From Minisyncoccota bacterium (GTDB lineage: Bacteria > Patescibacteriota > Minisyncoccia > Phycocordibacterales > SBAW01), in the NCBI GenBank assembly GCA_018060985.1, contig JAGOUZ010000001.1:21057-85056 (forward strand): a DNA stretch of 64,000 nucleotides, given 5' to 3'. A program made the translations under genes and the position numbers. Below the pieces are notes generated by a model. That model ran no database searches, was not told the origin of the DNA, and was given only the letters and a program-made list of their open reading frames with translations. Below are positions 27,445 through 64,000 of this stretch, one piece after another (position 1 is the stretch's first letter; every line of letters starts with the position of its first letter).

Positions 27445-28416
27445 TTGGCATTTGCAGCGCTTTGTGCTATTACGAACGCGTATATTTACCAGTTGACTAC
27501 ATGGCTTATGATGTTTTTTACCGCGTTCAGCAACTCTGTGTTGATTAAAAATGTAGGGGCAGTAGTGACCGCACTCGCGCTTATCGCTGGGGCGTATACG
27601 GTTTCCTTGCCAGCCGCATCGGCGGAGGTAAATCCGACCGCAGGCGCTATGTGCTCATTCTTGGGCGGTATACTAACAGAAGATGGTTGTCAGATTGCAG
27701 GTACGGCTATTTGTATCCTGCTCGAGACTCACTCAGCAGAGTCAGTAGAAGCAGCACTTAACCTCTTCGGTATGACCGTGGATGATTTTGACTGCGCCGA
27801 AGAAGAAACTACGCCTCAGGACCACTGCTCAACCGTAGCCGGTGTTCAGACTGAAGAAGACACCTGTCCATCGCAAGCAGAATTAGACTGCACTACCAGG
27901 GGCGGCACCTGGAATTCTGAAACTGCCGTATGTACGCCTGCAAACAATGATGAAGGCGAAGGAAACGGAGACGGTGAAGGTTCCGGTGGTTCAGATACCA
28001 GTGGTACTACTACCCAAGGTGGTGGCTTAACTGGCGGCGGTTCTATGGGCGGAGGCGGCGGTTCTGGCGGCCAGGTCTTGGGTGCAAGCACCGACGATGT
28101 CTGCTCGACACCTCTTATCACCAGCTACCTGCGTTTTGGCCAGAAGAACGACTTTGTTCAAATGGTATTGCTGCAGGTCTTCCTAAGGAACGAGCTCGGA
28201 AGCAAACTCCTTATTACCGGTGAGTTTGATGCCGACACGAAGGCAGCGGTAGATCAGTTCCAAGTTAAATACTCAGGCGAGGTGTTGGCTCCGTGGGTGC
28301 CCTTTGGCCTCGAGTCCACAAGCACTCCAACGAGTTATGTGTACAAAACAACGAAGCGCATGATCAACAAGATCCACTGCGCAGCGCTCGATATTCCGAT
28401 GCCACAGCTTCCCTAA
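27445..28416 (+). CDS. secreted Gly/Thr-rich protein with C-terminal peptidoglycan-binding (PGBD-like) domain
   Basis: signal/TM, Cys-containing acidic region, poly-Gly linker, PG_binding_1-like C-terminus (LxxGxxGxxV...DGxFDADTKAAVxxFQ). Confidence 0.6.
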   Translation: MAFAALCAITNAYIYQLTTWLMMFFTAFSNSVLIKNVGAVVTALALIAGAYTVSLPAASAEVNPTAGAMCSFLGGILTEDGCQIAGTAICILLETHSAESVEAALNLFGMTVDDFDCAEEETTPQDHCSTVAGVQTEEDTCPSQAELDCTTRGGTWNSETAVCTPANNDEGEGNGDGEGSGGSDTSGTTTQGGGLTGGGSMGGGGGSGGQVLGASTDDVCSTPLITSYLRFGQKNDFVQMVLLQVFLRNELGSKLLITGEFDADTKAAVDQFQVKYSGEVLAPWVPFGLESTSTPTSYVYKTTKRMINKIHCAALDIPMPQLP

Positions 28417-28440
28417 GCTCACCTCTTATCTCCTGATAGC

Positions 28441-28470
28441 AAAACCCCGCGCATCATTGCGCGGGGTTTT
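28441..28470. terminator. bidirectional rho-independent terminator
   Basis: aaaaccccgcgcatcattgcgcggggtttt between convergent genes. Confidence 0.6.
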
Positions 28471-28494
28471 GTATGTGCACTAATGCAATCAGAT

Positions 28495-29910
28495 TTACGG
28501 AAGTGCGGAAACAAATGTCGAGAGTGAGGCTGCGTCAGAGTTAACGCGCCAATCGCGTTCTTTGTTCTGGTTGAACCAGAGCCAACCCTTCACTTCTGGA
28601 TACTTGTAGAGCTGCACCGTAAGGAAGTCTTTAATCCAAGCTGCCTTGCCAGTACCAGCGGCCGTGGCCATAGAGAACAAGTAGATTGGCTTCTTGTACG
28701 TCTTAAGCTTGGCAAGAGGACCATCGAGTAATTGCGAGGGTGACCGCTCTTCCGTGCCGCCACCGAAGTTAAAGGCATCAATCCCAACATAATCCACCAC
28801 GTCATCTCCCGGGTAAGCCAGTTCAAACTGGTTAGCTGGCGTGTTTGGTACCGAGCCCGCATTTGGTGCCCATCCAAACTTTACATTCGGCACATCCTTG
28901 AAGAAGTTATGGATGTAGCGATACGCAGCTTTATGTTTTTCTGCTGTATTGGTGCCAATAGTAATGCCCCATGGATACCAGTTGCCATTAAACTCTGAGT
29001 ACGGAATAAGAATGACCGGACCACCGTATGCCTTAGCCCCCTCGGCAAACGTCTTAAAGTAACTATCGAGTTTACCGGCAAGCACCGAGTCATACGAGTA
29101 TTCTGGCTGAGAGAATGCATCGCGCTTAAAGTCGCTAGCCTCCCAGAACAGCACCATCGTTCTCCCCTGGTCGCGGATGCGCCCTGCATAGTACGAAGGG
29201 AACGTGGTTTCATTGCCCCAGTGTACGAACACCATTTCCATCTCAGGCTTCTTTTTTGTAAGGGCCTCAAACTCGGTCATAGACGAGGCGTGCCAACCTG
29301 TATACGCGCCCCACTTCACTCCTGCCGGCATCTTGCCTGTACTGCTTGCCACTGATGTGGAAGTAGTTGCAACGGGCGTTACTGGCGGCTTAACCGGTGT
29401 CGTCGTAGCGGTTGAGGTTGCTACAGGCGGCTTCGGTGATACGACAGGCGTTGTCGTAGCCGGTTTAGTTGAAGGCGTGGTTGTTGCAACAGGAGCCGGC
29501 GCTGTTGGTGCTGGTGCAGGTTTTGTTCTGCATTCAGGAACGGCAACAGAGACCTCGGTCGAGTACACGAGACTTCCTTCTTTCTGCGCAATAATTCGAT
29601 ACTGAAACTTCATCGCGCCGTAGTCGCTCTTGAAGCGCTTATCTACATGCGATGTTGTTTTGATCTGACTATCAAGAATGCCGGACCACGGCGCGCTCGC
29701 TACATTCTTTCGTTGAATTTTATAATAGAGGGCTTTATCTACCGAACCCCAAGACAAACTAACTTGTGGTAAACCATTTACACATTGCACTGTTGCTTGA
29801 TTCTGCGTGAACGTCTGCGGTGTTTCGACTCCCAGGGCTTTATCTGCGTTACTGAATAATCCGAAAACAATACCAATAAATCCTACCGTAATCAGTAATT
29901 TCTGTATCAC
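28495..29910 (-). CDS. secreted clan GH-A glycoside hydrolase (GH26/GH5-like) with Thr/Pro-rich linker and N-terminal beta-sandwich
   Basis: signal peptide; (beta/alpha)8-type motifs incl. VHWGNE; long PT-rich linker. Confidence 0.5.
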   Translation of the reverse strand: MIQKLLITVGFIGIVFGLFSNADKALGVETPQTFTQNQATVQCVNGLPQVSLSWGSVDKALYYKIQRKNVASAPWSGILDSQIKTTSHVDKRFKSDYGAMKFQYRIIAQKEGSLVYSTEVSVAVPECRTKPAPAPTAPAPVATTTPSTKPATTTPVVSPKPPVATSTATTTPVKPPVTPVATTSTSVASSTGKMPAGVKWGAYTGWHASSMTEFEALTKKKPEMEMVFVHWGNETTFPSYYAGRIRDQGRTMVLFWEASDFKRDAFSQPEYSYDSVLAGKLDSYFKTFAEGAKAYGGPVILIPYSEFNGNWYPWGITIGTNTAEKHKAAYRYIHNFFKDVPNVKFGWAPNAGSVPNTPANQFELAYPGDDVVDYVGIDAFNFGGGTEERSPSQLLDGPLAKLKTYKKPIYLFSMATAAGTGKAAWIKDFLTVQLYKYPEVKGWLWFNQNKERDWRVNSDAASLSTFVSALP

Positions 29911-29959: not shown

Positions 29960-32900
29960 CTAATTCATTGATGCAACACCCTCTTGCACTGTAATAACGT
30001 TAATTGGCACGGTTTTTATATAATTCACAGTTGTCTGAAGAAAGGCCGGTGTAGCAGTAAGTGGATCTGTAGACAAATCTGTATCTATCTGGTGGAACAT
30101 GAGGATGAGCCATGTCTTATCTGCCATTGCCTGCTCTACCCATCCCTGCACATCTTCGAGGGTCGTAGTGGTATTTATCTGCTGAATTTTAAGCGCGTAC
30201 TTGTCGGTCGTCTTAGTGTTGTATCCACGCTCAACGCCGCGTGCAGCGATATAGCCACCATTGCGAGTTACGTTTTGAACATCTTGATCGTACTCTCCGT
30301 ACGGATATGCGATTGTCGTTACTGAGTCAACGCCCATGGCAAGAATGTCTGTGCGAGAATTTACGATTTCATCAATTTTCTCTTCCTGTGTAAGAAGCGG
30401 CAAGTGTGCGTGGGTCTTAGTGTGACCGCCTATCTCATGACCATTCGCTTCCATCTCAAGAACTTGCGACTGGCTCATAAAGGTCTGCTCGGTCTTGAGC
30501 GAGTAGTTATCAACCGTGAGCGAGCCGACAGCTGCAAGTGAGTGGAACATGGTCATTGAGATTGCTCCTACAGGCGGTGTAACTGTGCGGGTAAGGGTTT
30601 GCCAAGTACCATCCGTTGATGGCAACCATGCCAAGAATACGTATTGAGTCGTGCCGTCACTCATGGTGTAGCGCATCAAGGTCTCTGACGGCGCAGTTGT
30701 TTTATATTGATCAGAAATGGTGTAAACATGGCCCTCTACTATCGGCACATCAGCAAAGAACCACTTAGCGTCGCCGTTCGTATAGCTAGACATTTCGATC
30801 TGCGCAGCACTTACACCATTTACGCCTTCTGCTGGGTAGGTAAACACGGTGGTGTTAGTGCCCCAGTTACCACGAGACCAATTGAGTGGATTGCTACCGG
30901 TGCCAAAAGTCTCAAGTGATGGGTTCTGTATAAGTTCGTCTGAAGCTCCCTGCAAGACTTCATTGCTGGTGATATAAAAGACGCCCTTAAGGTTGCCTGA
31001 GTTTAGGATCGGGTATGCCTGGCTGTAATGTGAGTACCAACCGTCATCGAACGTAAATGAGATCATGCCCGAATTGAATGTTCCTTCAAGACCCGCTGTA
31101 AGCGCGTAGTCATCGACTTCAAGCCAACCGACTTTGTTCATGCTGTGGAATAGTGTCATGGACACAACGCCAGTTGGGATAACGAGTACATGTGCATCTG
31201 CCACCCACTCTGCAGAAGCAGCCGGATCGCCGAGACCGATGTATACAACGCTGCCATCAGTCTTGGTATAACGGACCGTAAGATTGGTCGATACGCTTGA
31301 TTTATATTTGTGTCTAAGGGTATACGTCTTTCCGGCGGTTACTGGAGCGTCCGTAAAGTACCACTTAGCATCGCCGTTGGTGTAGCTGGTGAGCTCGATG
31401 CGAGCACCCTTAGCTCCATCTACGCCCGCTACCGGATAGGTAAAAACAGGAGTGTTAGTACCCCAGGCGCTGCGTGCCCAGTTTTGAGGATTGCCGCCGG
31501 TTCCTGCTGTCTCCAGCGATGCGTTTGGTATAAGGTTTGAGACAGAAACCTGGTTATTTACTTCGACATTCACCGTGGCAGATGGGGTGATATTTCCTGC
31601 ATGGTCTTCTGCGCGGGCACTCAAGGCATGAGAGCCGTTGGCAACTGTTTTAGTGTCCCACGTAAAGTCATAGGGAGCCGCCGTATCTACGACGCCTATT
31701 GGAGTACCGTCGAGGAGCAGAGTTACACCGGTCACACCGACATTGTCTGCTGCAGTTACTGAAACCGTAGTAGTACCCACGAGCGTGGCGCCTTCTGCCG
31801 GAGATGCGATAGAAACGGTCGGCGCTTCGGTATCGGCAGTAGCGGTTGGATCAGCAAGTACAAAGTCATCAACTTCAAGGAAGCCAACTGAGTGCACCAC
31901 ATGAAAGACCGTGAGTGACACCGCGTTAAGAGGAGCAGTTATGGAGTATGCATTTTGAGACCATGTAGCAGATGCGGGAGCATTACCCAAAAACTGATAT
32001 TGTGTTGCGCCACCCGTGAGCGTGTAGCGCGCAAGCACCTCTGTGGTCGTATTGCTTCTATAGACGTGATCAAACGAGTAGGTCTTGCCGCCAGTTACCG
32101 GAACTTCAGCAAAGTACCACTTTGCATCGCCGTTGGTATAGCTCGTAATTTCTACACGTGCTGACTTAGCAGACGTTGGACCAGCTACTGGGTAGGTAAA
32201 GGCGCGGTTGTTGGTGCCCCATCCGCCGCGGAGCCATGAAGTCGGGTCGCCGGAAACAGCTGCGGATTCAAGTGACGGGTTAACGATGAGGTTTGAGTTC
32301 GTTGGAGGGGTTACTGAGTTGTCTACGTTAACCGTTATGGTGTGTGTTGAATTGTTGCCTGACGGATCGTGCGTCGTTGCCTTAATAGTGTGAGAACCAT
32401 TTCCAACGGTAGTCGTATCAAAATTATAGAGATATGGTGCATCGTGGATCTGTCCAGTTACTGGAATGCCGTCTACCGCATAGAAGATATACGTAACGGC
32501 TGTGTCGTCAGTAGAAGACGCCGTAATGCCAACGGTGCCATGAATGGTCTGGCCAGCGAGCGGATTAGTGATCTCTACAATCGGCGTATTGGTTTCTGAC
32601 GGAGTGCCGGAACCAGAGACGTACATTTGAGCATCATCGATTTCGATATAGCCAACTGCACTGATGAGGTGGAAGAACGTAACGTGAGTTGCGTTAGCTG
32701 GCGGCGTAAAGGTATGCGAAACGGTATTCCAAGTCGTTGATGGCTGAATTTCTTTTACGAGTCCAAAGTAGTGGAAGCTACCGTCGGCAAGAGTGTACTG
32801 ACCGATGATGTCGGAAATGGTGTTTGAGCGGTAGTGGTCAGAATAGGTGTACTGCGTACCTGGAGTTACAGCAATTTTAGTAAAGGCCCATTTTGCATCG

Positions 32901-35674
32901 CCGGTGCCAGTCGGAGGGGTCGGATATGCCGTGATGTTAGTGCGAAGTGCCTTGCCGCCGTTGTAGCCAGTAATTGGGTACTCATATGAGCGAGTATGAT
33001 TACCCCAACCACCCTGAGTCCAGCCTTGTGGTGCAGTACCCACTTGGGTCTCCATGTCCCCGTTTTGAATAAGATTTGTTGGAGTAGCTTGATTAGACAC
33101 AGTAACGGTAATTTGCGGAGCAGTACCAGTGTTGCCTGCAATGTCGCGTGCGCGTGCAGAAATAGTGTGGGTACCATTTGTAAGAGTCGTGGTATTCCAC
33201 GCAAATTCATACGGAGCCACGGTGTCTTCGGCGCCTACATCTGTACCATCAACAACAAGCGTGACACCAGCAACGCCGCCAGAGTCCCCTGCAGTAACGG
33301 CAACGGTCGTCGTGGTGCTTACAGTGCTTCCGTTAACTGGAGAATCAATAACAAGAAGAGGCGCCGTAGTATCTACGCTATTGTCGATATGTGTAATTGA
33401 AAAGTTGTCGGTGGTGAGTGAGCCAACTGCGTAGATTTCATGCCAAACGGTGAGAGATTCTACCCCAGCTGGAATAGTGACCGTTCTTTCAATTTTGGTT
33501 GGCGTGCCAACCGCAGGAACAGCACCGAGGTCGAGGTACTGGTACGTACCATTAGAGAGGCCGAGCTGCGCGTAAATCGACGTAACCACCGTTGCGGTGT
33601 AGTACTCGGTGTACACATATTGCGCTCCCGGAATAACGCTTATGGGGCTGAAGTACCACTTAGCGTTTCCGTCCACGTGATAATCCATGCTGAGTTGGAG
33701 GCCCTTAGAGCCTTCAAAGCCGGTGACCGGATACGTAAAGGTAGGATTGTTGAGACCAAAGTTTCCGCGAAGCCAGTTGAGTGGGTTGCCGCCAGGACCG
33801 TCTGCAGGAATTTCAACTGACGGGTTCTGAATAAGATTTCCCTGAACACCTGAACCGTTGTCGAGGTACAGGTTGGTGCTTGCAGTGCTAATGAGGCCTG
33901 CTGAGTCGGTTACCGTGAGAATAATTTCTGTGTATACGTCTGCTGAGCTGTGGTCAGGCGCAATAAACCAAGGATTTTTTGTATTAGTAAAATCCTGCTC
34001 AATGTGAGTATGGGTGTTGTGATGGAGAATTACCTGCCAATGAAATGCTGACGCTGGAAGAGTGCCGTCTTCACTGTCTACACCTGTACCCGTAAGCTGG
34101 ATAACATCGTTCGGCGTGTAAAGTGAGCCTGATGCCGGGCTTGTAATAGATGCGGTCGGCGCCTGATTACCGGCTGTAATCGTGATCGTCTTTGATGCCG
34201 ATGCGCCATGCGCATCAGTGAGCTTCATCACAACATTGTAGGTGCCGTTGGTAGCAAATGTATGGGATGGATTTGCCGTGTTCGAGAATGATCCGTCGTC
34301 AAAATTCCACTCGTAAGTAAGCGCATCGTTGTCCGGGTCGTATGAACCGAAGCTCGTAAATGACACCTGGAGCGGCGTAAGACCAGAAGTCGGATTACCG
34401 GAGATCTCAACAATCGGACGACGGTTACCAGTCGTGTGGGTGATGCGGTTCAACTCGCCCGTGTAAATAGAAAGGTAGTACACATTACCATCGGGACCAG
34501 TCGTTATATCCACCGGACCATCAGGGTTGTCCATAAAGTCATGCACGGAAACAAAGTTGCCGTTTTGGTCGAGCACTATGCGCTTGATCCAGTTCTGAGC
34601 GTAGTCACCAAAAAACAGGCTTGTGTCGTATGTGTCTGGATACGCATCGTTGCTTGGGAATGCACCTGCAGTTACTGAGCCCGCGCCAAACTGGTTGTGC
34701 GGATAGTCGTAGAGCGGAGTCGTGTTAGACGAGGTACAGCCGTGAGAGGTAAGACCGGTACCTTCCCAACATGGCCAGCCGTAGTTTGCACCAGCAACTA
34801 CTTTATTTATTTCCTCACGATTGCTCCAGCCCACATCGCCAGCAAACAAGGTGCCTGTAGTAGGATTAAAGTTAAAGCGGAATGAGTTACGTACGCCAAG
34901 GGCAAATACTTTAGAGCGGTTTGAGTTCGTACCATCATAAAATGGGTTTGCATCTTCTGCAGGACCATTTGTTGGTGCAGTGCCGTCACGGTCAATGCGG
35001 AGCACCTTGCCTGCAAGTGAATTTAGATCCTGTGCGCGGAGCGAACGTGGGTCCGCATAGTCAAAGTTTGCGCCGTCGCCCAAGGTTGCGTAGAGCATGC
35101 CATCTGGTCCAAAGCGAAGACCTCCAACACTGTGACTTGGAGAGTCCGAAGGAATGCAGTCTGCAGTAACTGGATAGTCCTCGCAAGACGGTGTTGCTGC
35201 ATTACCGCCAACGGTACCAACAAGGATCACCTTGCTTGACTCAAGGGCTGTATCTCCTACTACGGTAACGCGCACGATGCGGCCTGTCTTTTCGCCGCCG
35301 ACGTCAGTACCTGGGGTGTTTTCAAATGTGTATGACAAATAGAGATACCCTGTTTCAGAAAAGTTCGGATCAGCAGCAATGCCAAGAAGGCCGCGGTCGC
35401 CGAAGGTGTTGATGTCAGAAAGCCCTATAACTGGCGTCGGAAGCAGTACGCCGTTTTTAACTACCCGAACGGTGCCGCCTTTTTCTGCAATAAAGATGCG
35501 GCCGTCGTTGGCAAAGGTCATCGCGGTAGGAATAGTCAAACCCCCTACGACGGTCTCTGTCTCAAAGCCCGGCTCACTTATAGCAGCCTGTGCTACGTTA
35601 GAAGGCAAAAGGCCCGTTATGATAACGAGTGAGAAGAACGTTCCGGTGACGAATTTTTGAATAGAAGTGTTCAT
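29960..35674 (-). CDS. giant multidomain surface protein (1904 aa): signal peptide, PQQ-dependent sugar dehydrogenase-like beta-propeller, PKD, 5x CBM4_9-like modules alternating with 4x Ig-like domains, C-terminal polysaccharide deacetylase (NodB) domain split by a CBM insertion
   Basis: uninterrupted 5.7-kb ORF; propeller motifs; PKD (TYEWNFDDGS); recurring CBM starts such as NLIQNGDMETQVGTAPQGWTQGGWG, each with a GDAKWYF-type motif; NodB motifs TFDDG ... HTKTH ... YPYG ... LxH with about 170 aa inserted between MT1 and MT2. Confidence 0.85.
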   Translation of the reverse strand: MNTSIQKFVTGTFFSLVIITGLLPSNVAQAAISEPGFETETVVGGLTIPTAMTFANDGRIFIAEKGGTVRVVKNGVLLPTPVIGLSDINTFGDRGLLGIAADPNFSETGYLYLSYTFENTPGTDVGGEKTGRIVRVTVVGDTALESSKVILVGTVGGNAATPSCEDYPVTADCIPSDSPSHSVGGLRFGPDGMLYATLGDGANFDYADPRSLRAQDLNSLAGKVLRIDRDGTAPTNGPAEDANPFYDGTNSNRSKVFALGVRNSFRFNFNPTTGTLFAGDVGWSNREEINKVVAGANYGWPCWEGTGLTSHGCTSSNTTPLYDYPHNQFGAGSVTAGAFPSNDAYPDTYDTSLFFGDYAQNWIKRIVLDQNGNFVSVHDFMDNPDGPVDITTGPDGNVYYLSIYTGELNRITHTTGNRRPIVEISGNPTSGLTPLQVSFTSFGSYDPDNDALTYEWNFDDGSFSNTANPSHTFATNGTYNVVMKLTDAHGASASKTITITAGNQAPTASITSPASGSLYTPNDVIQLTGTGVDSEDGTLPASAFHWQVILHHNTHTHIEQDFTNTKNPWFIAPDHSSADVYTEIILTVTDSAGLISTASTNLYLDNGSGVQGNLIQNPSVEIPADGPGGNPLNWLRGNFGLNNPTFTYPVTGFEGSKGLQLSMDYHVDGNAKWYFSPISVIPGAQYVYTEYYTATVVTSIYAQLGLSNGTYQYLDLGAVPAVGTPTKIERTVTIPAGVESLTVWHEIYAVGSLTTDNFSITHIDNSVDTTAPLLVIDSPVNGSTVSTTTTVAVTAGDSGGVAGVTLVVDGTDVGAEDTVAPYEFAWNTTTLTNGTHTISARARDIAGNTGTAPQITVTVSNQATPTNLIQNGDMETQVGTAPQGWTQGGWGNHTRSYEYPITGYNGGKALRTNITAYPTPPTGTGDAKWAFTKIAVTPGTQYTYSDHYRSNTISDIIGQYTLADGSFHYFGLVKEIQPSTTWNTVSHTFTPPANATHVTFFHLISAVGYIEIDDAQMYVSGSGTPSETNTPIVEITNPLAGQTIHGTVGITASSTDDTAVTYIFYAVDGIPVTGQIHDAPYLYNFDTTTVGNGSHTIKATTHDPSGNNSTHTITVNVDNSVTPPTNSNLIVNPSLESAAVSGDPTSWLRGGWGTNNRAFTYPVAGPTSAKSARVEITSYTNGDAKWYFAEVPVTGGKTYSFDHVYRSNTTTEVLARYTLTGGATQYQFLGNAPASATWSQNAYSITAPLNAVSLTVFHVVHSVGFLEVDDFVLADPTATADTEAPTVSIASPAEGATLVGTTTVSVTAADNVGVTGVTLLLDGTPIGVVDTAAPYDFTWDTKTVANGSHALSARAEDHAGNITPSATVNVEVNNQVSVSNLIPNASLETAGTGGNPQNWARSAWGTNTPVFTYPVAGVDGAKGARIELTSYTNGDAKWYFTDAPVTAGKTYTLRHKYKSSVSTNLTVRYTKTDGSVVYIGLGDPAASAEWVADAHVLVIPTGVVSMTLFHSMNKVGWLEVDDYALTAGLEGTFNSGMISFTFDDGWYSHYSQAYPILNSGNLKGVFYITSNEVLQGASDELIQNPSLETFGTGSNPLNWSRGNWGTNTTVFTYPAEGVNGVSAAQIEMSSYTNGDAKWFFADVPIVEGHVYTISDQYKTTAPSETLMRYTMSDGTTQYVFLAWLPSTDGTWQTLTRTVTPPVGAISMTMFHSLAAVGSLTVDNYSLKTEQTFMSQSQVLEMEANGHEIGGHTKTHAHLPLLTQEEKIDEIVNSRTDILAMGVDSVTTIAYPYGEYDQDVQNVTRNGGYIAARGVERGYNTKTTDKYALKIQQINTTTTLEDVQGWVEQAMADKTWLILMFHQIDTDLSTDPLTATPAFLQTTVNYIKTVPINVITVQEGVASMN
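30424..33817 (-). repeat. five diverged tandem module repeats (about 600-770 bp period) inside the giant gene
   Basis: nucleotide motif ccactt(a/t)gc(g/a)tcgccgtt recurs at about 30761, 31361, 32117, 32887, 33656 (encodes GDAKW(Y/A)F). Confidence 0.6.
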
Positions 35675-35680
35675 ACTGTA

Positions 35681-36007
35681 TTAGTGGCCGACGTATACAA
35701 TCTCAGTGCTGCTAATCAAGTCCTCCACTGCCTGACCGATATATGAGTACGAATGCGTGATGTAGTCGGCGTTTGAGGTGTCGTTCACTGCTTCCTGGAC
35801 GATGTAGATAGCGGTTGATGCGGTAAAGATAAAAAAGCCGCCGATCATAGTGAAGGCGAAGATAGCAGAAAGAGACTCATTAAACGTAAGAATCTTTGTG
35901 AAGAATGAGCGAACCGGTGTCGTATATACGGGGTTTATAAGGGAAAGAACCGACCCAACAAGGACGATACTGACGCTTATAAGAAATGAGATTCCTGAAA
36001 ATGGCAT
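35681..36007 (-). CDS. small polytopic membrane protein, candidate IcaD/PgaD-like synthase partner
   Basis: 108 aa, 2-3 TM helices, stop-start abutting the GT2 gene (36007/36009). Confidence 0.5.
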   Translation of the reverse strand: MPFSGISFLISVSIVLVGSVLSLINPVYTTPVRSFFTKILTFNESLSAIFAFTMIGGFFIFTASTAIYIVQEAVNDTSNADYITHSYSYIGQAVEDLISSTEIVYVGH

Positions 36008-36008
36008 A

Positions 36009-37049
36009 TTATGAAAGTATCTTGCGACGCTCTGGGTGGAACCAAACCATGTTCTTCTTGCGTAGCACTACCTCTTTAACGAACTGCTCGAGAAACACGT
36101 AAGCGTTTACGAAGAGAAGGACGATATAGGTCGGAGAGTACAGAAGTAGATCCCAACGTTTGCGGGCAATAGCGCCATACACGCCAAGCGTAAGGAGGAA
36201 GGCGAAGTACGGAACAACAAAGTAGAAAAAGAGAACGATGTTAAGGAACGGCATAAGGAAGAGGAGGCCTGCAAAGAAAAAGCCTTCAATATAGATAAGG
36301 GCAAAGGTAAAAGCGTTTGCCGGGTTCTGGAGCACGCGGAAGTGCTTGCGGAGGTTCTGCCAACCGCCGCAGTACCAGCGACGCATCTGGTTAATGTATG
36401 AAGAAAGAGTAGCGGGGTCCTGGGTATATACAATCGCCTTGCGATCATAAATAATCTTCTGCTCCTGAGCATGCAGCTTGTAGGTAAGGTCGAGATCTTC
36501 TGTAAGGGTGTCGTGATCGAAAGTAATCACAGAGCGGAAAAGTTCGGTGCGGAATGCACCGGCGCAACCTGGGATCACGAAGATAGCGTGGAGAAACGCT
36601 TGAGCTTGTTTGTAGAGGTCCTGACCAAGAAGATAGTCGAGCTCGCGACATGCAGTAAGCCAGTTGTGAGAGAGACTCTTTACATAGCCGCCCATTGCGG
36701 CAACTTCAGGATCTTGGAAGTCGATTTCAACGCGCTCAATAAAGTGACGGTCAATAATAGTATCGCCATCGGTTGCAACAACCACTTCGCTAGAAATGTG
36801 CTGTAAGCCGATCTGCTGCGCATGACTTTTGTTGCCGGTTGCAACCGGAATAGTGACAACTTTAATTTTATTACCAAAAGTTTTAAGCACGTCAGCCGTC
36901 TTGTCGGTTGATCCGTCGTTAATGACAACGACCTCATCAGCAGGACGAGTCTGATCGAGACATGACTGAACACAAGCCGCAACAGATTTTTCCTCGTTGT
37001 GGCAAGGGATAAGTATCGAAATAGTTATATTTTTAGGGCTTTTTACCAT
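36009..37049 (-). CDS. processive family-2 glycosyltransferase (IcaA/PgaC/NodC/cellulose-synthase-like)
   Basis: D (DGSTD), DxD (DGD), GxxxFR, TED and Q(R)xRW (QMRRW) motifs; C-terminal TM helices. Confidence 0.85.
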   Translation of the reverse strand: MVKSPKNITISILIPCHNEEKSVAACVQSCLDQTRPADEVVVINDGSTDKTADVLKTFGNKIKVVTIPVATGNKSHAQQIGLQHISSEVVVATDGDTIIDRHFIERVEIDFQDPEVAAMGGYVKSLSHNWLTACRELDYLLGQDLYKQAQAFLHAIFVIPGCAGAFRTELFRSVITFDHDTLTEDLDLTYKLHAQEQKIIYDRKAIVYTQDPATLSSYINQMRRWYCGGWQNLRKHFRVLQNPANAFTFALIYIEGFFFAGLLFLMPFLNIVLFFYFVVPYFAFLLTLGVYGAIARKRWDLLLYSPTYIVLLFVNAYVFLEQFVKEVVLRKKNMVWFHPERRKILS

Positions 37050-37208
37050 AGAAACGAGCTCACGCGATTAGTGAGCTCTGGGGTATATATAACATGCTAT
37101 GTATTGCATGTCAATATTGCGTGTTCCTTAATCAAATGTTGTTGACATATATAGATATTTTGTGTGATTACCTTCAATTTAAAAAACATGCATCGAGTGC
37201 GGATTTTA

Positions 37209-37236
37209 TTGACACAAAACACTCGAAGCATATAGT
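37209..37236 (+). promoter_or_regulatory. sigma70-like promoter TTGACA-N16-TATAGT
   Basis: in AT-rich divergent intergenic region, followed by GAGGAG RBS and ATG 37279. Confidence 0.35.
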
Positions 37237-37278
37237 ACCGAGAGGAGTACTGAGCTAACCCAACTGAGGAGACGGACC

Positions 37279-38085
37279 ATGCGTGCAATTCTCGCTGCGC
37301 TTTTTTTCTGCCTCGCAACTTCTGCAAAGGCCTTCGGCCCCGAGTGCGCGACAGACCCCCTGCCCCACCTGCTGCGCACGACCGTGATGCTCGAGCGCAT
37401 GTTCGACGAAGACGAGCGATACTTCGATCAAAAAGAATTTAAGTGGGTCGAAGGCATCCAGGGCACGGCGTGGTTTGTCGACAAGCAGACCATCGCTACG
37501 ATCGGCCATGTTGCCACGAGCGCAAAGCTGGATGGCAGCTGGAAGGAAGTGACACTTGCCTGGAGTGACGGCAAGGACGAGGAGACCTCGCTTGCACTGC
37601 AGGTTCACGTGCAGCTCAAGGACATCATCGTCGGCCCCGAAAACTTGGAGCCGATCATGACACTGGAACTTGAAATCCCCATCGACGACGCCTTTGTGGC
37701 CCCCATTCGCTACACACCACTCCAGAACAAAGAGGCGGTGGTGGGGCTAGGGTATCGAGATGGAGCACTCCGGTTCGCCCACGGGTACCTTAACTATCCG
37801 AAGCCGAGCAGCGAACCTTCTGACAGCGATCCACCGCCCAAGCCCTACCTGCCGTTCGAGCTCTTTGATGCAGACGAAAGCAAGAACGACCGGTACGTGT
37901 TTGACCACGGCGCGTCGGGGTCTCCGCTCTTTGACTGCGATGGCAATGTGGTGGCAGTTGTGCAGGCCATGATGGAGTGGCCCTTCCCTGCCGGAAAGGT
38001 TTTTGGCAGAACCACTACCACGTCCGCATGGGGCGACGCCAACATGACCGGCGTCTCAACCGCAAACATGGGCAAGCAGAAGTAA
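37279..38085 (+). CDS. secreted trypsin-like (S1/PA clan) peptidase-domain protein, GC-rich
   Basis: signal peptide MRAILAALFFCLATSAKAF; His region TIGHVAT; GDSGGP-equivalent GASGSPLFDC; GC about 58% with GC-rich third positions. Confidence 0.55.
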   Translation: MRAILAALFFCLATSAKAFGPECATDPLPHLLRTTVMLERMFDEDERYFDQKEFKWVEGIQGTAWFVDKQTIATIGHVATSAKLDGSWKEVTLAWSDGKDEETSLALQVHVQLKDIIVGPENLEPIMTLELEIPIDDAFVAPIRYTPLQNKEAVVGLGYRDGALRFAHGYLNYPKPSSEPSDSDPPPKPYLPFELFDADESKNDRYVFDHGASGSPLFDCDGNVVAVVQAMMEWPFPAGKVFGRTTTTSAWGDANMTGVSTANMGKQK

Positions 38086-40372: not shown

Positions 40373-40447
40373 TCCGCGGTAGCTCAATGGTAGAGCAGCT
40401 CCCTGTTAAGGAGTTGGTTGTAGGTTCGAGTCCTACCCGCGGAGCCA
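40373..40447 (+). tRNA. tRNA-Asn (GTT), CCA encoded
   Basis: acceptor TCCGCGG/CCGCGGA, D-arm AGCTCAATGGTAGAGC, anticodon loop CTGTTAA, T-arm GTAGGTTCGAGTCCTAC; TATAAT at about 40350. Confidence 0.9.
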
Positions 40448-42016
40448 GTTGGGATTAGCGTCGCCAAAAGCGACGCTTTCCCGTTTAGGAGAGCCACCTT
40501 TAGGAGGTTCGAACCGGTCGTTTTTTCGTCTTACCGAATTTGAGACGAGAATCATCGGCAAAAGCGCAATATCGGTGTCAATGCTGATTATTTTGTCTTT
40601 CAGGAGGAGGTTCGAACCGAGGGCGGATAAAAAGACCTTTCGGGCATGCTGGCCCCGTTCGGTGAAGGCTTCTCTGGCGTCGCTTGCGAACGTGAGCACC
40701 TTGTCGGCCGTCTGCAGCCAACTGTCCACCCGGGCGTCGGTGTCATTCAAAAGTTCGTGGAGTTTTGCTTTCTCCTGATTTATCTCCGACTTCTTTCGTG
40801 CAAATTCTTCTTCGCTTATTTCTCCCGAAGCTCGCATGTCGATGAGCGCGTCGAGCTTCTTTACGCATGCCTCGTAGTTCTGTTGCTGGTTGGCAAGAAT
40901 CGCATTGCGGTCAGCGGCCTCCCGACCATTCTCGTTCTGCAGCCACTTCATTGCCCACTCGTGGAAATCCTCTGGTGGCTTGACCCGGCCAAGAGTATCC
41001 TCGATCTGTTTGTCCAGCTCCTTCACCTCGATGCATTTCTGCTTGCAGGGACCTTTGCGTTTCGTGCAGTGGTAATAAATATATCGGTGGATGTTGCCGT
41101 TCTTATTCCTCTTGGTCTTGTGCTCGGCCGTGACCATGCATCCGCACTCTCCACAGCGGATCATGCCCGTGTAGGCAAAGCTGTGCTCCTCGGGCTTTGG
41201 CTTGCTGCCACGGCCTAGAAGCGCCTGCATGCGGTCGTACTCCTCGCGTGTGATCATTGGCTCGTGCTTGCCCTTGTGCCAGTTGCCCGAGCCTTGCGGC
41301 CACTCGAACCAGCCGTAGTAGAAGGGATTGTAGAGCACGCGGTAGAAACCGCTTCGCGCGAGCTTCTTTAAGCCCCACTGGTTTACTGCGATCTCATGCA
41401 CCCTCGGCGTTGTGTATGTGCCGCTGAGGAGCATGTCGAACATTTTTCGGATGATCGGAAACATCTTCGGGTCTTTGCGTATCGTCTTGAATCCTTTCAT
41501 TTTGTCCGGCGTGTTCATGTAACCGATTGGAGCCGGGCCTGGATGCCAGCCCATCTCTACTTTGCGCCGGAGGCCGCGCTTTACGTCGACGCCTTTGTTG
41601 TCGTTCTCCAATTTCGCCTGGCTGCAGAGGAGGTTGAGAAGGAATTTGTCGTTCGGCGTATTTTTGTAAGCCTGTCCGGGCGTGCGAATGTCCTGAAGCC
41701 TGTTCTGGTCCATGAGATAGACCAGATAGCCGGTGTCGACGGAATTGCGCGAGAGGCGGTTCGGGTGCCAGGCGATGATGCCTTCGGCTTCGCCCTTTTC
41801 GATGCGCTTAATCATCGCGTTGAAGATCTCGCGCCCGGGCGCTTTGGCCGAGTACGATTCTTCGAGGCGCTCCACCACATGGAGCTTCTCTCTTTTTGCG
41901 AGTGCTTCCAATTCGCTCTTTTGCGAGTCTATCGAAAGTACCTGTCTATCTTCTTGTTCGGACGATTTGCGAGCGTAGAGGAAGTACTTGTGCTTTTGCT
42001 GTACTTCCTGGTTCAT
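40433..42016 (-). CDS. large serine recombinase (resolvase/invertase N-domain + recombinase domain + zinc ribbon)
   Basis: catalytic region YARKSSEQEDRQVLSIDSQ, recombinase domain, zinc ribbon CGECGC...YYHC...C, 527 aa; 3' end overlaps tRNA-Asn 3' end. Confidence 0.85.
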   Translation of the reverse strand: MNQEVQQKHKYFLYARKSSEQEDRQVLSIDSQKSELEALAKREKLHVVERLEESYSAKAPGREIFNAMIKRIEKGEAEGIIAWHPNRLSRNSVDTGYLVYLMDQNRLQDIRTPGQAYKNTPNDKFLLNLLCSQAKLENDNKGVDVKRGLRRKVEMGWHPGPAPIGYMNTPDKMKGFKTIRKDPKMFPIIRKMFDMLLSGTYTTPRVHEIAVNQWGLKKLARSGFYRVLYNPFYYGWFEWPQGSGNWHKGKHEPMITREEYDRMQALLGRGSKPKPEEHSFAYTGMIRCGECGCMVTAEHKTKRNKNGNIHRYIYYHCTKRKGPCKQKCIEVKELDKQIEDTLGRVKPPEDFHEWAMKWLQNENGREAADRNAILANQQQNYEACVKKLDALIDMRASGEISEEEFARKKSEINQEKAKLHELLNDTDARVDSWLQTADKVLTFASDAREAFTERGQHARKVFLSALGSNLLLKDKIISIDTDIALLPMILVSNSVRRKNDRFEPPKGGSPKRESVAFGDANPNWLRG

Positions 42017-44451: not shown

Positions 44452-45798
44452 TTAGTGACCACTATGGTCAACGCTCGCGTTGCCGTAAAAGATATCAGGT
44501 CGCTCCTCTCCTTCAACCTCAATAATCGCCCAAGCTCCTTTGTTCATGCGAGCGAGGGCGTGGTCAACTAGCACGATGTTGCCGGGCACCTCTGGGGTAA
44601 ATTCAACAATAGTTGCGCCACCTGGTAAAACCGCAGTTGTTTGGATATTTTCATGCGGCTCAGCATCGATACCACCCTCAGCATAAACTGTGTCCCATAT
44701 CTCGCCGATCGGGTGGAATGACGAAATGAGATTCACACCACCATTTCCAACGAAAATGCGCACCCTCTCACCTGTTTTTACTTTCATGCGTGGGTGTCCG
44801 TCGGTCTCGATACGTCCGTTGAAGGTCACATAATTTGGCAAACCATCAAGGAGTGCGTTGCCGTCGAAAATAGTAAGTCCCTTCTTTCCAATCTCACCTT
44901 TGGTATAAAGCTCACCTTGCACAAGATAAAACTCTTTATCGACGGGGGGCAACCCTTCTTTTGGTTCGACTAGGATAAGTCCGTACTGTCCGTGTGAGTT
45001 ATGTGTACTCACGTTTGGTGTCGCACAGTGATAAATGTAAAGGCCCGGTTGAAGCGCCTTCCATGTAAACACTTTTGTCTCACCGGGCTCGACGCGCGAA
45101 AGCGTTGAACCACCCCCCGGGCCAGTTACTGCGTGAAGGTCAATGTTGTGTGCATGGAGGCTCGACGGATGATTGGTAATTGTCATTTCGACCATGTCTC
45201 CTTCGAGCACGCGCAGCATCGGTCCGGGCACTTGCTTATTGAACGTCCAGTAGTTGAAATAGATACCTTTGGCCACTTCGGCGATCACCTCCTGTGCTGT
45301 AAGAGATATCCTAACGGTTTCGTTTGTGTCTCGGCTGATGGGCGGCGGAACATTGTTAGGGTCGGCACCTATGTCCTCGACATACTCAAAGTTTTTAAAG
45401 TTCTTTATGAACACAAGTACGTTCTTGAATGGGAGGTCGGGAAGCGCTCCACCTGGGTGATAGACATGCATGAACGCGGGCATTGCAAAATGTGGCGAGT
45501 AGGTTTTATCTGCCCACATGTATAAAAGTCCTGCAGCCATAATTACGCCAAATGTGACCGCAAGAATCTTTGAATGCACACGATATAGAAGGCGGAGTAT
45601 GAAGAAGGAGAGCGCCAAGACCACAATCGTAATGGCCCCACCCTGCATCACCGAGTAATGAATGAATGGATAGAAAGTGATCAGATTTCCAAAGCCAAAG
45701 TATGAAAACATGCTAATGAAGCCCAGGAGCACAAGGATACCGATACCAATGCCGATCTTAGTCATTGGACGACTCATCTTTCTGTATTTGAACTCCAT
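44452..45798 (-). CDS. nirK: copper-containing nitrite reductase (NirK)-family two-cupredoxin-domain protein with about 130-aa N-terminal multi-TM extension
   Basis: HNIDLHAVTGPGGG (T1/T2 Cu His motif), IYHCATPNVSTHNSHGQ (Cys/His T1 ligands; Gln at the usual axial Met position by manual alignment), 448 aa. Confidence 0.7.
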   Translation of the reverse strand: MEFKYRKMSRPMTKIGIGIGILVLLGFISMFSYFGFGNLITFYPFIHYSVMQGGAITIVVLALSFFILRLLYRVHSKILAVTFGVIMAAGLLYMWADKTYSPHFAMPAFMHVYHPGGALPDLPFKNVLVFIKNFKNFEYVEDIGADPNNVPPPISRDTNETVRISLTAQEVIAEVAKGIYFNYWTFNKQVPGPMLRVLEGDMVEMTITNHPSSLHAHNIDLHAVTGPGGGSTLSRVEPGETKVFTWKALQPGLYIYHCATPNVSTHNSHGQYGLILVEPKEGLPPVDKEFYLVQGELYTKGEIGKKGLTIFDGNALLDGLPNYVTFNGRIETDGHPRMKVKTGERVRIFVGNGGVNLISSFHPIGEIWDTVYAEGGIDAEPHENIQTTAVLPGGATIVEFTPEVPGNIVLVDHALARMNKGAWAIIEVEGEERPDIFYGNASVDHSGH

Positions 45799-63207: not shown

Positions 63208-63284
63208 AGATTTAATTCCAACTATCTACTAATTAAATAATAATTACTTTCCCGAAATCTATTATACTGTAGATATTATGCGCA

Positions 63285-64000
63285 AGGAGCTAATGGTACT
63301 CATCGGTGGATTGCTAGTTTTGGGCCTTTTAATAGTGCTGTTTAAACCAAATGCGGAGCAAAACGTACCACAAGAAGAGGGGGCAAATATCCAAAAAACC
63401 CTTAGTTTTAGCCTTCCCACGGGATTTGAGGCCACGCTGTATAGCGGAGATGTGCCTGGAGTACGCGTTATTACCCGCGATTCTAAGACAACGATCGTAG
63501 CCTCCCTGACCTCTGAAGGAAAGGTGGTTGCCCTCCCAAACAGCGACTTTGACCAAATTGCAGACAGGGTCGTAACCGTGCTCGAAGGGCTAAATCATCC
63601 CCATGGAGTCGCCTTTATAGGTGACACACTCTACGTTGCAGAGGAGGGAGCGGTAAAATCTTATACGTACAATCCGGATACCTTTACTGCGACATATATA
63701 GAAACACTGACTACCCTACCGACCGGAGACGGACACTCAACACGTTCGCTCATGGTGTGGCCCGATAATTCAAAGTTATTGGTATCTGCCGGATCGTCCT
63801 GCAATGTTTGTCATGAGGAAGATCCACGACGCGCAGCTATACTCTCGATTAATTTAGCTACAAAAGAAGTTACACCATTTGCCAAAGGTCTCCGTAATAC
63901 GGTCTTCATGGCCCTTCACCCAGTTACCGGCGACATTTGGGGCACCGAGATGGGCCGGGACTGGCTGGGCGACGACCTGCCCCCGGAAGAAATCAATATT
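63285..64000 (+). CDS. PQQ-dependent sugar (glucose/sorbosone) dehydrogenase, 5' part (runs off window)
   Basis: AAGGAG RBS; N-terminal TM; LNHPHGVAFIGDTLYVAE propeller motif; not in ORF track because no stop within window. Confidence 0.7.

Follow-up and report, generated by a model that had tools for sequence, protein, structure and literature searches.

The 64,000-nucleotide (nt) stretch of contig JAGOUZ010000001.1 from a Minisyncoccota bacterium that was analyzed here (hereafter, the window) carries a giant multidomain gene at positions 29960–35674 of the minus strand. A preliminary description of this DNA had reported a single uninterrupted open reading frame (ORF) without giving its strand; the ORF of 1904 codons was confirmed, and the minus strand was found to be the coding one. 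All positions given below for the giant's domains and for the genes adjoining it on the same strand refer to the minus strand. The GC content of the gene is 50%, the same as that of the whole window, and the exact protein is already available at NCBI, on a 155-kb contig, under the automatic name 'MAG: PQQ-dependent sugar dehydrogenase [Candidatus Pacebacteria bacterium]' (MAG, metagenome-assembled genome; PQQ, pyrroloquinoline quinone). The giant is a genuine gene of a bacterium of the candidate phyla radiation (CPR; phylum Minisyncoccota). Its domains were called with Pfam and its internal repeats by BLAST of segments against the whole protein, and these analyses, together with AlphaFold models, agreed with the inventory and order of domains described earlier. 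A signal peptide could be read from the sequence at residues 1–30 (35585–35674), with a hydrophobic stretch at residues 5–23 and a likely cleavage site after VAQA. Neither an LPXTG motif, nor a lipobox Cys, nor a second transmembrane segment was found in the protein, in which a Sec-type signal peptide alone is visible. A sortase or lipoprotein anchor was rejected, as LPXTG is absent and the only Cys residues are four within the N-terminal propeller; the earlier designation as a surface protein is accordingly not supported.

The C terminus is formed by a polysaccharide deacetylase domain of carbohydrate esterase family 4 (CE4, NodB type) that is split in two. Its N-terminal part (residues 1528–1578; 30941–31093) comprises strand 1 with motif 1 (TFDD; D1543 and D1544), helix 1, and strand 2, while its C-terminal part (residues 1729–1904; 29963–30490) contains motif 2 (HTKTH; H1751 and H1755), motif 3 (AYPYG), and H1861. 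Between the two, in the loop that separates motifs 1 and 2, a module resembling carbohydrate-binding modules (CBMs) and named here M5 is inserted (residues 1579–1728; 30491–30940). By the VcCDA numbering, this loop is 'Loop 1' of the CE4 enzymes. The succession of motifs with a CBM between the first and the second, as originally noted, was recovered by the Pfam profile and by the positions of TFDDG (1541), HTKTH (1751), and YPYG (1790). In the intact giant, Polysacc_deac_1 matched in two stretches (78.2 bits, E = 6.7e-22, cut-off 23.1), and upon deletion of residues 1579–1728 the match became continuous over profile positions 3–121 of 124 and reached 91.9 bits (E = 4e-26), supporting the NodB assignment. 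The spliced domain is collinear with chitin deacetylases, and the insert occupies the loop that connects strand 2 to the helix before motif 2. AlphaFold modeled the 377-residue region (1528–1904) as a NodB barrel plus M5 with a predicted local distance difference test score (pLDDT) of 92.7; in this predicted structure the inserted module is tolerated, and the split NodB is, as modeled, a viable fold.

Alignment of this region with 17 short homologs (18 split-type sequences) showed D1543, D1544, H1751, H1755, Y1790, P1791, G1793, R1812, and H1861 to be invariant (D16, D17, H224, H228, Y263, P264, G266, R285, and H334 in the numbering of the 377-residue query). Also invariant are W1855, L1856, and I1857, which precede H1861 in motif 5 (WLILMFH). 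In CE4 enzymes, the motif-1 Asp residues provide the catalytic base and a metal ligand, the two motif-2 His bind the metal, and the motif-5 His is the catalytic acid. With the Asp-Asp and His-His pairs and the motif-5 His all invariant, the CE4 domain of the giant is predicted to be a metal-dependent deacetylase. Motif 3 reads AYPYG instead of RPPYG, the canonical Arg aligning to Ala1789, so that RxPY is not formed. The invariant R1812, located ~20 residues past motif 3 and three residues before E1815 (Asp in most relatives), would substitute for the motif-3 Arg in tethering the catalytic base. For the C-terminal extension of the domain, the best match was the holdfast deacetylase HfsH, far under the cut-off.

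The inserted M5 is the last of five modules of ~150 amino acids (aa) that share 36–54% identity (E = 1e-30 to 1e-51 in the segment-against-whole BLAST) and whose GDAKW/GNAKW cores start at residues 669, 925, 1182, 1434, and 1634. M1 (residues 611–765; 33380–33844) was delimited by the repeat BLAST, and M3 (residues 1125–1278; 31841–32302) by the same search and by a profile search. M4 (residues 1377–1527; 31094–31546) is the conserved 'pre-NodB' module of a core unit that can be written M-NodB(M). M2 (residues 863–1022; 32609–33088) is the sole copy with a direct match to Pfam CBM_4_9, at 22.7 bits (E = 1.3e-4) under the cut-off of 25.9, the other four being weaker or nil. Among 31 modules of the family, CBM_4_9 matched 14 at E ≤ 0.01 (best 3.9e-9), and no other family competed. 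A profile built from the 31 modules found CBM4, CBM22, and CBM16 structures in the PDB, and Foldseek retrieved CBM16, CBM22, and CBM4 at E ~1e-9 with target-normalized TM-scores of 0.6–0.7, that is, the type-B β-jelly-roll fold. Because the structural search, the profile search, and the 14 CBM_4_9 matches agree, the repeated module is assigned, on sequence and model, to the CBM4/16/22 jelly-roll clan, of which it is a diverged representative, and is a predicted glycan binder. The five CBM4_9-like modules reported previously are thus upheld, though their Pfam scores in the giant fall under the cut-off.

M1 to M4 are separated by three Big_7 Ig-like domains, at residues 766–862 (33089–33379; Pfam match 768–859), 1023–1124 (32303–32608; match 1027–1118, E = 4.2e-13), and 1279–1376 (31547–31840; match 1281–1372). 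These account for three of the four Ig domains counted before; the fourth corresponds to the domain at residues 503–610, which has weak Pfam support and is all-β in AlphaFold (see below). At the DNA level the repeats are spaced by 600, 756, 771, and 768 nt and are 61–71% identical over 185 nt, with a best-conserved stretch of ~22 nt, and TRF found no tandem DNA repeat in the giant gene. The nearest relative of M5 in other proteins was an inserted module in 42 of 61 cases, while 13 more led to modules whose CE4 position could not be assigned by motif patterns; for the pre-NodB module, it was another pre-NodB module in 57 of 68 cases. As modules in the same position are closest to each other across species, the insertion appears to be old and positionally conserved. 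A recent intragenic duplication as the origin of M5 was rejected on the same ground, the inserted modules being each other's closest relatives across species. The low identity of the repeats, which lack long exact stretches, and their positional orthology also make unfounded the earlier concern that the gene is prone to recombination and misassembly.

The N-terminal part of the giant starts with a six-blade β-propeller of the glucose/sorbosone dehydrogenase (GSDH) type (residues 31–412; 34439–35584), recognized by Pfam, AlphaFold, and Foldseek. The Pfam GSDH match covers residues 47–402 (E = 2.4e-49; 168.9 bits, cut-off 25), and NCBIfam TIGR03606 (glucose/sorbosone family PQQ-dependent dehydrogenase) was missed (97.6 bits, cut-off 434.55). 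An AlphaFold model of residues 31–610 (580 residues) had a mean pLDDT of 89.5. The nearest structures of the propeller were the PQQ sugar dehydrogenases 3A9G and 2ISM (target-normalized TM-score 0.85) and Asd (0.81), followed by HHIP and by fungal enzymes of auxiliary activity family 12 (AA12).

To place the cofactor residues, the propeller was aligned to 2ISM, 3A9G, 2G8S, and 5MIN, and conservation was scored in 119 relatives. In soluble glucose dehydrogenase (sGDH), H144 is the catalytic His, and R228 and N229 form the Arg-Asn pair at the PQQ quinone (PMC6881810). In the alignment these residues match H181, R262, and N263 of the propeller, which are kept in 118, 119, and 116 of the 119 relatives, respectively. 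The C-terminal Arg pair at the PQQ carboxylates (sGDH R406 and R408) is replaced by Gly and Val, with GPVDI standing against RIRDV of Asd. Likewise, DVGW, invariant in the family, stands where Asd and sGDH have EHGP, so that the (Q/H)GP calcium loop is missing. The replacing residues V281, P387, and V388 are near-invariant (118–119 of 119), and the family has conserved Arg residues of its own, R94 (108 of 119) and R266 (117 of 119). Arg408 of sGDH contacts PQQ, and AA12 enzymes, which carry one PQQ-binding Arg elsewhere in the sequence, provide a precedent for relocated contacts (PMC6881789). With the catalytic His and the Arg-Asn pair kept, the two C-terminal Arg replaced, and relocated contacts known from AA12, the propeller may or may not depend on PQQ. 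The PQQ-dehydrogenase-like assignment of the preliminary description thus stands as regards the GSDH fold, H181, R262, and N263, and fails as regards the two C-terminal PQQ-binding Arg (RxR) and the EHGP loop. The propeller contains all four Cys of the giant (C164, C173, C302, and C313); they are conserved without exception in the 28 relatives aligned and probably form two disulfides.

The propeller is followed by a PKD domain (residues 413–502; 34169–34438; Pfam PKD_4 at 417–500, E = 4.6e-19) and by an all-β, Ig-like domain (residues 503–610; 33845–34168). The latter gave weak Pfam matches (Ig_SibA, 5e-4; Big_7, 5.6e-3) and was modeled by AlphaFold as nine β strands with block pLDDT values of 73–94. 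Its residues W546, H552, H555, H557, and D590 (motif HHNTHTH) are invariant in 28 of 28 GSDH-PKD relatives, and no known family accounts for them; this His cluster may be a metal site beside the propeller. In the relatives, the propeller is always followed by the PKD and the His-cluster Ig-like domain, and the same cassette also stands at the N terminus of many further secreted proteins of large size, which carry LamG, CARDB, PA14, protease, or phosphatase modules. Most likely, the cassette would provide the giant either with another activity, an oxidative one, or with a capacity for binding.

The giant is the third gene of a cluster of four, which had not been mentioned before. On the minus strand, a family 2 glycosyltransferase (GT2), a 108-aa protein with two transmembrane segments, the giant, and a protein resembling glycoside hydrolase family 26 (GH26) follow one another, separated by 1, 6, and 49 nt, and the series ends in a terminator. 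The GT2 gene (36009–37049; 346 codons; Pfam Glyco_tranf_2_3, E = 9e-29) encodes the D, DxD, TED (TEDLDL), and QxxRW (QMRRW) motifs of processive β-glycan synthases and two to three C-terminal transmembrane helices. Its best NCBIfam family is PgaC_IcaA (TIGR03937; 138 bits over 331 of 345 residues), with NodC next. The gene for the 108-aa protein (35681–36007), whose two transmembrane segments were seen by hydropathy and whose N terminus is MPFSGISFLI, begins 1 nt past the GT2 stop, and the giant starts 6 nt past the stop codon of this small gene. A precedent for such a pair is PgaC, which depends on PgaD, a small protein of the membrane (PMC8461298). No family match for the 108-aa protein was obtained in Pfam and NCBIfam scans.

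Downstream of the cluster, an intrinsic-terminator hairpin (28440–28471) lies between convergent genes, 24 nt past the stop of the GH26-like gene. It has a 14-bp stem followed by UUUUGCU, and its folding energy (−26.4 kcal/mol, z = −7.2) was equaled by none of 200 shuffles. A scan for consensus promoters and terminators missed this hairpin and returned fewer promoter-like sites than in shuffled sequence. Upstream, the cluster is preceded by an AT-rich region (37050–37300), in which an 8-bp terminator-like hairpin (37056–37078, minus strand) lies a few nt before the GT2 start codon. No riboswitch or other Rfam RNA was found in the leader, and two tRNAs were the only such RNAs in the whole window.

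The last gene of the cluster encodes the GH26-like protein (28495–29910; 471 aa; Pfam GH26, E = 5e-14, 52.8 bits, cut-off 20.2), which consists of an N-terminal transmembrane or signal segment, a Pro/Thr-rich linker, and a Lic26A-like barrel. It aligns over the full domain with the GH26 domain of Clostridium thermocellum Endoglucanase H (E ~1e-33). That domain is the lichenase CtLic26A, with E109 as acid/base and E222 as nucleophile, a numbering that fits the alignment. Of the two catalytic Glu, the GH26-like protein has the acid/base one (YSEFNG) and lacks the nucleophile (IIIAEF in Lic26A), in whose place it has Ser. All the cluster-linked copies aligned (loci L001–L037) combine the acid/base Glu with a Ser in place of the nucleophile, whereas Glu is retained there in two copies that are more distant. 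One speculation is that the GH26-like protein could act by substrate-assisted catalysis on a 2-acetamido sugar, and catalysis of this kind on an N-acetylated sugar would fit the presence of a PgaC-like synthase and a deacetylase.

A HMMER scan of 1.84 billion representative sequences found 962 related proteins at E ≤ 1e-30, and of the best 150 representatives (50% identity clusters), about 50 match the query over its whole length, insert included. At least 57 clusters contain the split NodB, in giants as well as in short M-NodB(M) proteins of 400–650 aa; motifs 1 and 2 are ~204 residues apart in the split forms versus ~50 in ordinary CE4. Unsplit NodB domains also occur among close relatives. 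GSDH and CE4 are found together in 50 of the 120 best relatives listed (at least 50 protein clusters). In nine clusters the order GSDH-PKD-Ig-(M-Ig)x3-M-NodB(M) is identical, where M stands for the CBM-like module, and the others vary only in the number of M-Ig units. The combination of domains, considered unusual at the outset, is therefore shared by many proteins. Within the searchable literature, no description of this architecture or of such an exopolysaccharide locus in CPR was found. The giant is not a one-off oddity; it belongs to a widespread, uncharacterized family.

The surroundings of the relatives were compared by scanning one genome per species, which gave 283 relatives, and the counts of loci that follow refer to the best 80 of these. 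Nearly all are in records titled as CPR or Patescibacteria MAGs. Ten loci (L030, L034, L035, L040, L045, L048, L051, L054, L076, and L079) are titled 'uncultured Gammaproteobacteria' or 'Acidobacteriota', and these are probably mislabeled or mis-binned MAG records. A full-length GT2 ortholog with 49–62% identity is present upstream on the same strand in 21 of the 80 loci, and a GH26-like gene in 25. The GSDH-PKD-His-cluster cassette is optional, being present in 13 of the 80; of those 13 loci, GT2 was found in 10 (two of the remaining three end at a contig edge) and GH26-like in 12. Among close relatives, the 20 whose upstream sequence extends for 2.5 kb or more included 14 with GT2 and 13 with GH26-like. 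No homolog of the 108-aa protein was detected by tblastn in the 80 loci. In 13 loci, an ORF of 91–311 aa with two transmembrane segments and the N-terminal motif SPFxGLSLIxHL directly follows GT2; as the protein is too divergent for tblastn, its conservation is seen by position, topology, and motif alone. In two loci the homologous region is divided between neighboring ORFs, one for a GSDH-CBM array and one for a CBM-CE4 (L005, 4265–8350 and 8402–10552; L037, 3017–9166 and 9200–10519), which represent either an unfused ancestral state or the product of assembly frameshifts. This two-ORF state suggests that the giant arose by fusion of neighboring genes, and the adjacency of the two halves points to a functional link between them.

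The conserved cluster of GT2, small transmembrane protein, giant, and GH26-like protein gives the giant a plausible role. By analogy with the ica and pga systems, we consider it somewhat better than an even chance that the cluster is a synthase-dependent exopolysaccharide system and that the giant is a secreted multimodular enzyme that binds, deacetylates, and so tailors the polysaccharide. In such a system, the processive PgaC/IcaA-like GT2 and the two-transmembrane partner, placed like IcaD/PgaD, would polymerize and export a β-linked glycan. The giant, exported by its signal peptide, would hold the polymer through its five CBM4/16/22-like modules, spaced by Ig domains, and its C-terminal metal-dependent CE4 would remove acetyl groups from the chain. 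Loop 1 helps to shape the non-reducing-end subsites in the subsite-capping model of CE4 enzymes (PMC5855634). Because Loop 1 borders these subsites in chitin deacetylases, M5 in that position could lengthen the cleft for the substrate and feed the chain into the active site or position it there. More speculatively, the GH26-like protein might trim or release the polymer, possibly by substrate-assisted catalysis, and the propeller cassette might contribute its oxidative or binding function.

Several observations weigh against this role. The cut-offs of the ica/pga equivalogs were all missed (PgaC_IcaA, 138 vs 422.3 bits; IcaB, 22.2 vs 248; PgaB, 24.8 vs 322), and the GT2, with no N-terminal transmembrane helix and two to three C-terminal ones, has few helices for a translocating synthase. 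Linkage drops among distant CE4 relatives, to 6 of 38 for GT2 and 3 of 38 for GH26-like. In the modeled NodB region, how M5 is oriented against the barrel is predicted with less certainty than either fold (predicted TM-score 0.70). Motif 2 is an ordinary HxxxH (HTKTH) and not the HxxxxH spacing of poly-N-acetylglucosamine (PNAG) deacetylases (PMC5855634). Lastly, the CBM4/16/22 and GH26 relatives act on β-glucans, mannans, or xylans, which are typically targets of degradative enzymes and are not N-acetylated.

This last point leads to the main rival, namely that the giant is a degradative carbohydrate-active enzyme that scavenges foreign polysaccharide, such as a host or prey wall, chitin, acetylated xylan or mannan, or β-glucan. 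The CBMs would then target the substrate, CE4 would deacetylate it, the GH26-like protein would cut it, and the GSDH propeller would serve as an AA12-like auxiliary oxidoreductase, the linkage to GT2 being incidental. The glucan- and xylan-type relatives of the CBMs and of the GH26-like protein, the closest of the latter being a lichenase (CtLic26A), fit such a role. It is at odds, however, with the processive GT2 and its two-transmembrane partner, which immediately precede the giant on its strand, with 1–6 nt between the genes, in an arrangement that recurs across many genera. A retaining endoglucanase or mannanase would also not be expected to lack its nucleophile in all the linked copies aligned, and the relocation of the motif-3 Arg is otherwise described only in enzymes that tailor a self-made polymer. 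We therefore regard scavenging as a possible explanation and an unlikely one, and the two considered next as less likely still.

The giant could instead be mainly an adhesin or scaffold, with its CBMs and a noncatalytic, HHIP-like propeller attaching the episymbiont to its host or to a matrix and with enzyme activity secondary or lost. The long, Thr/Gly-rich protein with repeated CBM-Ig units that vary in number between orthologs would suit this function, as would the absence of the two C-terminal PQQ-binding Arg and the resemblance of the propeller to HHIP ectodomains, which rank second among its structural relatives and were solved in complex with heparin. Yet the metal and catalytic residues of CE4 are invariant, the propeller His and Arg-Asn pair, needless for pure binding, are kept in 116–119 of 119 relatives, and the giant has no cell-anchoring motif, all of which makes a mainly adhesive role improbable. 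The ORF could also be an artefact of assembly, produced by chimerism between repeats or by a miscounted repeat number; in favor of this, the sequence comes from a MAG, the gene has internal repeats with periods of 600–771 nt, and the homologous region in L005 and L037 is divided into two ORFs. Against this, the repeats are 61–71% identical without long exact stretches, and every module has its ortholog at the corresponding position in other species. Moreover, nine independent clusters have the identical domain order, several with nearly equal lengths (1881, 1894, and 1901 aa), and locus L001, 92–93% identical and from a different study, has the same C-terminal arrangement and GH26 neighbor. 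An artefact is thus extremely improbable.

Returning to the exopolysaccharide system, its most far-reaching form would be a CPR-specific and previously undescribed machine in which a minimal PgaC-like synthase and its partner make an N-acetylated β-glycan. The secreted megaenzyme would deacetylate this polymer through its CBM-extended CE4 and oxidize it, or its reducing end, through the rewired GSDH propeller and the His-cluster metal domain. Cleavage of the polymer would fall to the GH26 that lacks its nucleophile, acting by substrate-assisted catalysis, and the product would be the glue by which these episymbionts attach to their hosts. Taken as a whole, this chain of steps is quite doubtful.

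Elsewhere in the window, a second PQQ-sugar-dehydrogenase gene had been placed at 63285. A partial propeller-type gene with an N-terminal transmembrane segment does lie there on the plus strand (63278–64000), running to the window edge. Its start is at 63278 or 63293, and its sole Pfam match, TrAA12-like, is under the cut-off (22 vs 30.9 bits). A multicopper-oxidase-like ORF (44452–45798, minus strand; Cu-oxidase_3, E = 6.7e-14) would be a second putative extracellular redox enzyme of this small-genome organism. Convergent to the cluster, a 323-aa ORF (27445–28416, plus strand) has an N-terminal transmembrane segment, a Cys-rich stretch, a Gly/Ser-rich linker, and no family match; tblastn found relatives of it in 5 of the 80 loci. 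A tRNA-Asn gene (40373–40447, plus strand) and the 3' end of a gene for a large serine recombinase (40433–42016, minus strand; Resolvase, Recombinase, and Zn-ribbon domains) overlap; this is likely the boundary of an integrated element, ~3.3 kb beyond the upstream end of the cluster.

CPR bacteria, or Patescibacteria, combine a tiny genome with a life attached to other cells, and their surface chemistry is little known. That many of them devote ~9 kb to the conserved GT2/small-transmembrane/CBM-CE4/GH26-like cluster makes it a strong candidate for building or remodeling an attachment matrix. For enzymology, the cluster offers a naturally occurring CE4 that carries a folded CBM within Loop 1, the loop thought to set the deacetylation pattern in chitin deacetylases. 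It also offers a GSDH propeller subfamily with rewired cofactor contacts and a GH26 subfamily with an invariant Ser at the nucleophile position.

Compared with known systems, the modules of the giant share the type-B β-jelly-roll fold of CBM4, CBM16, and CBM22, from which they differ in falling under the Pfam cut-off. With CtLic26A, the GH26-like protein has in common the full-domain alignment (E ~1e-33) and the acid/base Glu, whereas Glu222 is Ser in the cluster-linked copies. The six-blade propeller resembles those of the PQQ dehydrogenases (Asd, 2G8S; 3A9G; 2ISM; sGDH, 1C9U) and of AA12 in its fold (TM-score 0.81–0.85), catalytic His, and Arg-Asn pair. It departs from them in having Gly and Val for R406 and R408, DVGW for EHGP/QGP, the new R94 and R266, and two predicted disulfides. 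The canonical CE4 enzymes, among them the chitin deacetylases Pst_13661, AnCDA, and ClCDA, SpPgdA, and the acetylxylan esterases, share with the giant the NodB barrel, TFDD, H(S/T)xxH, PYG, and the motif-5 His, and are collinear with it once the insert is removed. They differ from the giant in that the latter has a 150-aa folded module in Loop 1, AYPYG without the Arg, and a C-terminal extension.

The nearest structural precedent for the insertion is BoPDA, in which a CE4 and a β-sandwich CBM are also joined by domain insertion, not in tandem, and which is likewise encoded in a polysaccharide biosynthesis locus. The topology is reversed, with CE4 inside the CBM in BoPDA and the CBM inside the CE4 barrel, in Loop 1, in the giant. 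BoPDA has a His-Asp dyad, unlike the canonical Asp-His-His ligands of the giant, and is a lipoprotein restricted to Bacteroides. From the ica and pga systems (icaADBC and pgaABCD), the cluster of the giant differs in reaching no equivalog threshold, in the HxxxH of motif 2, and in a deacetylase that shares its polypeptide with as many as five CBMs, with Ig spacers, and with a GSDH propeller. Its hydrolase is GH26-like and not GH153, its small partner shows no similarity in sequence, and a porin or IcaC is absent. The likeness lies in the order of a GT2, a candidate small membrane partner, and an extracellular CE4, which is that of PgaC, PgaD, and PgaB and of icaA-icaD-icaB. It extends to PgaC_IcaA as the best family of the GT2, to the presence of a glycosidase-like function, comparable to the C-terminal domain of PgaB, and to a motif-3 Arg moved towards motif 4, as reported for PNAG deacetylases.

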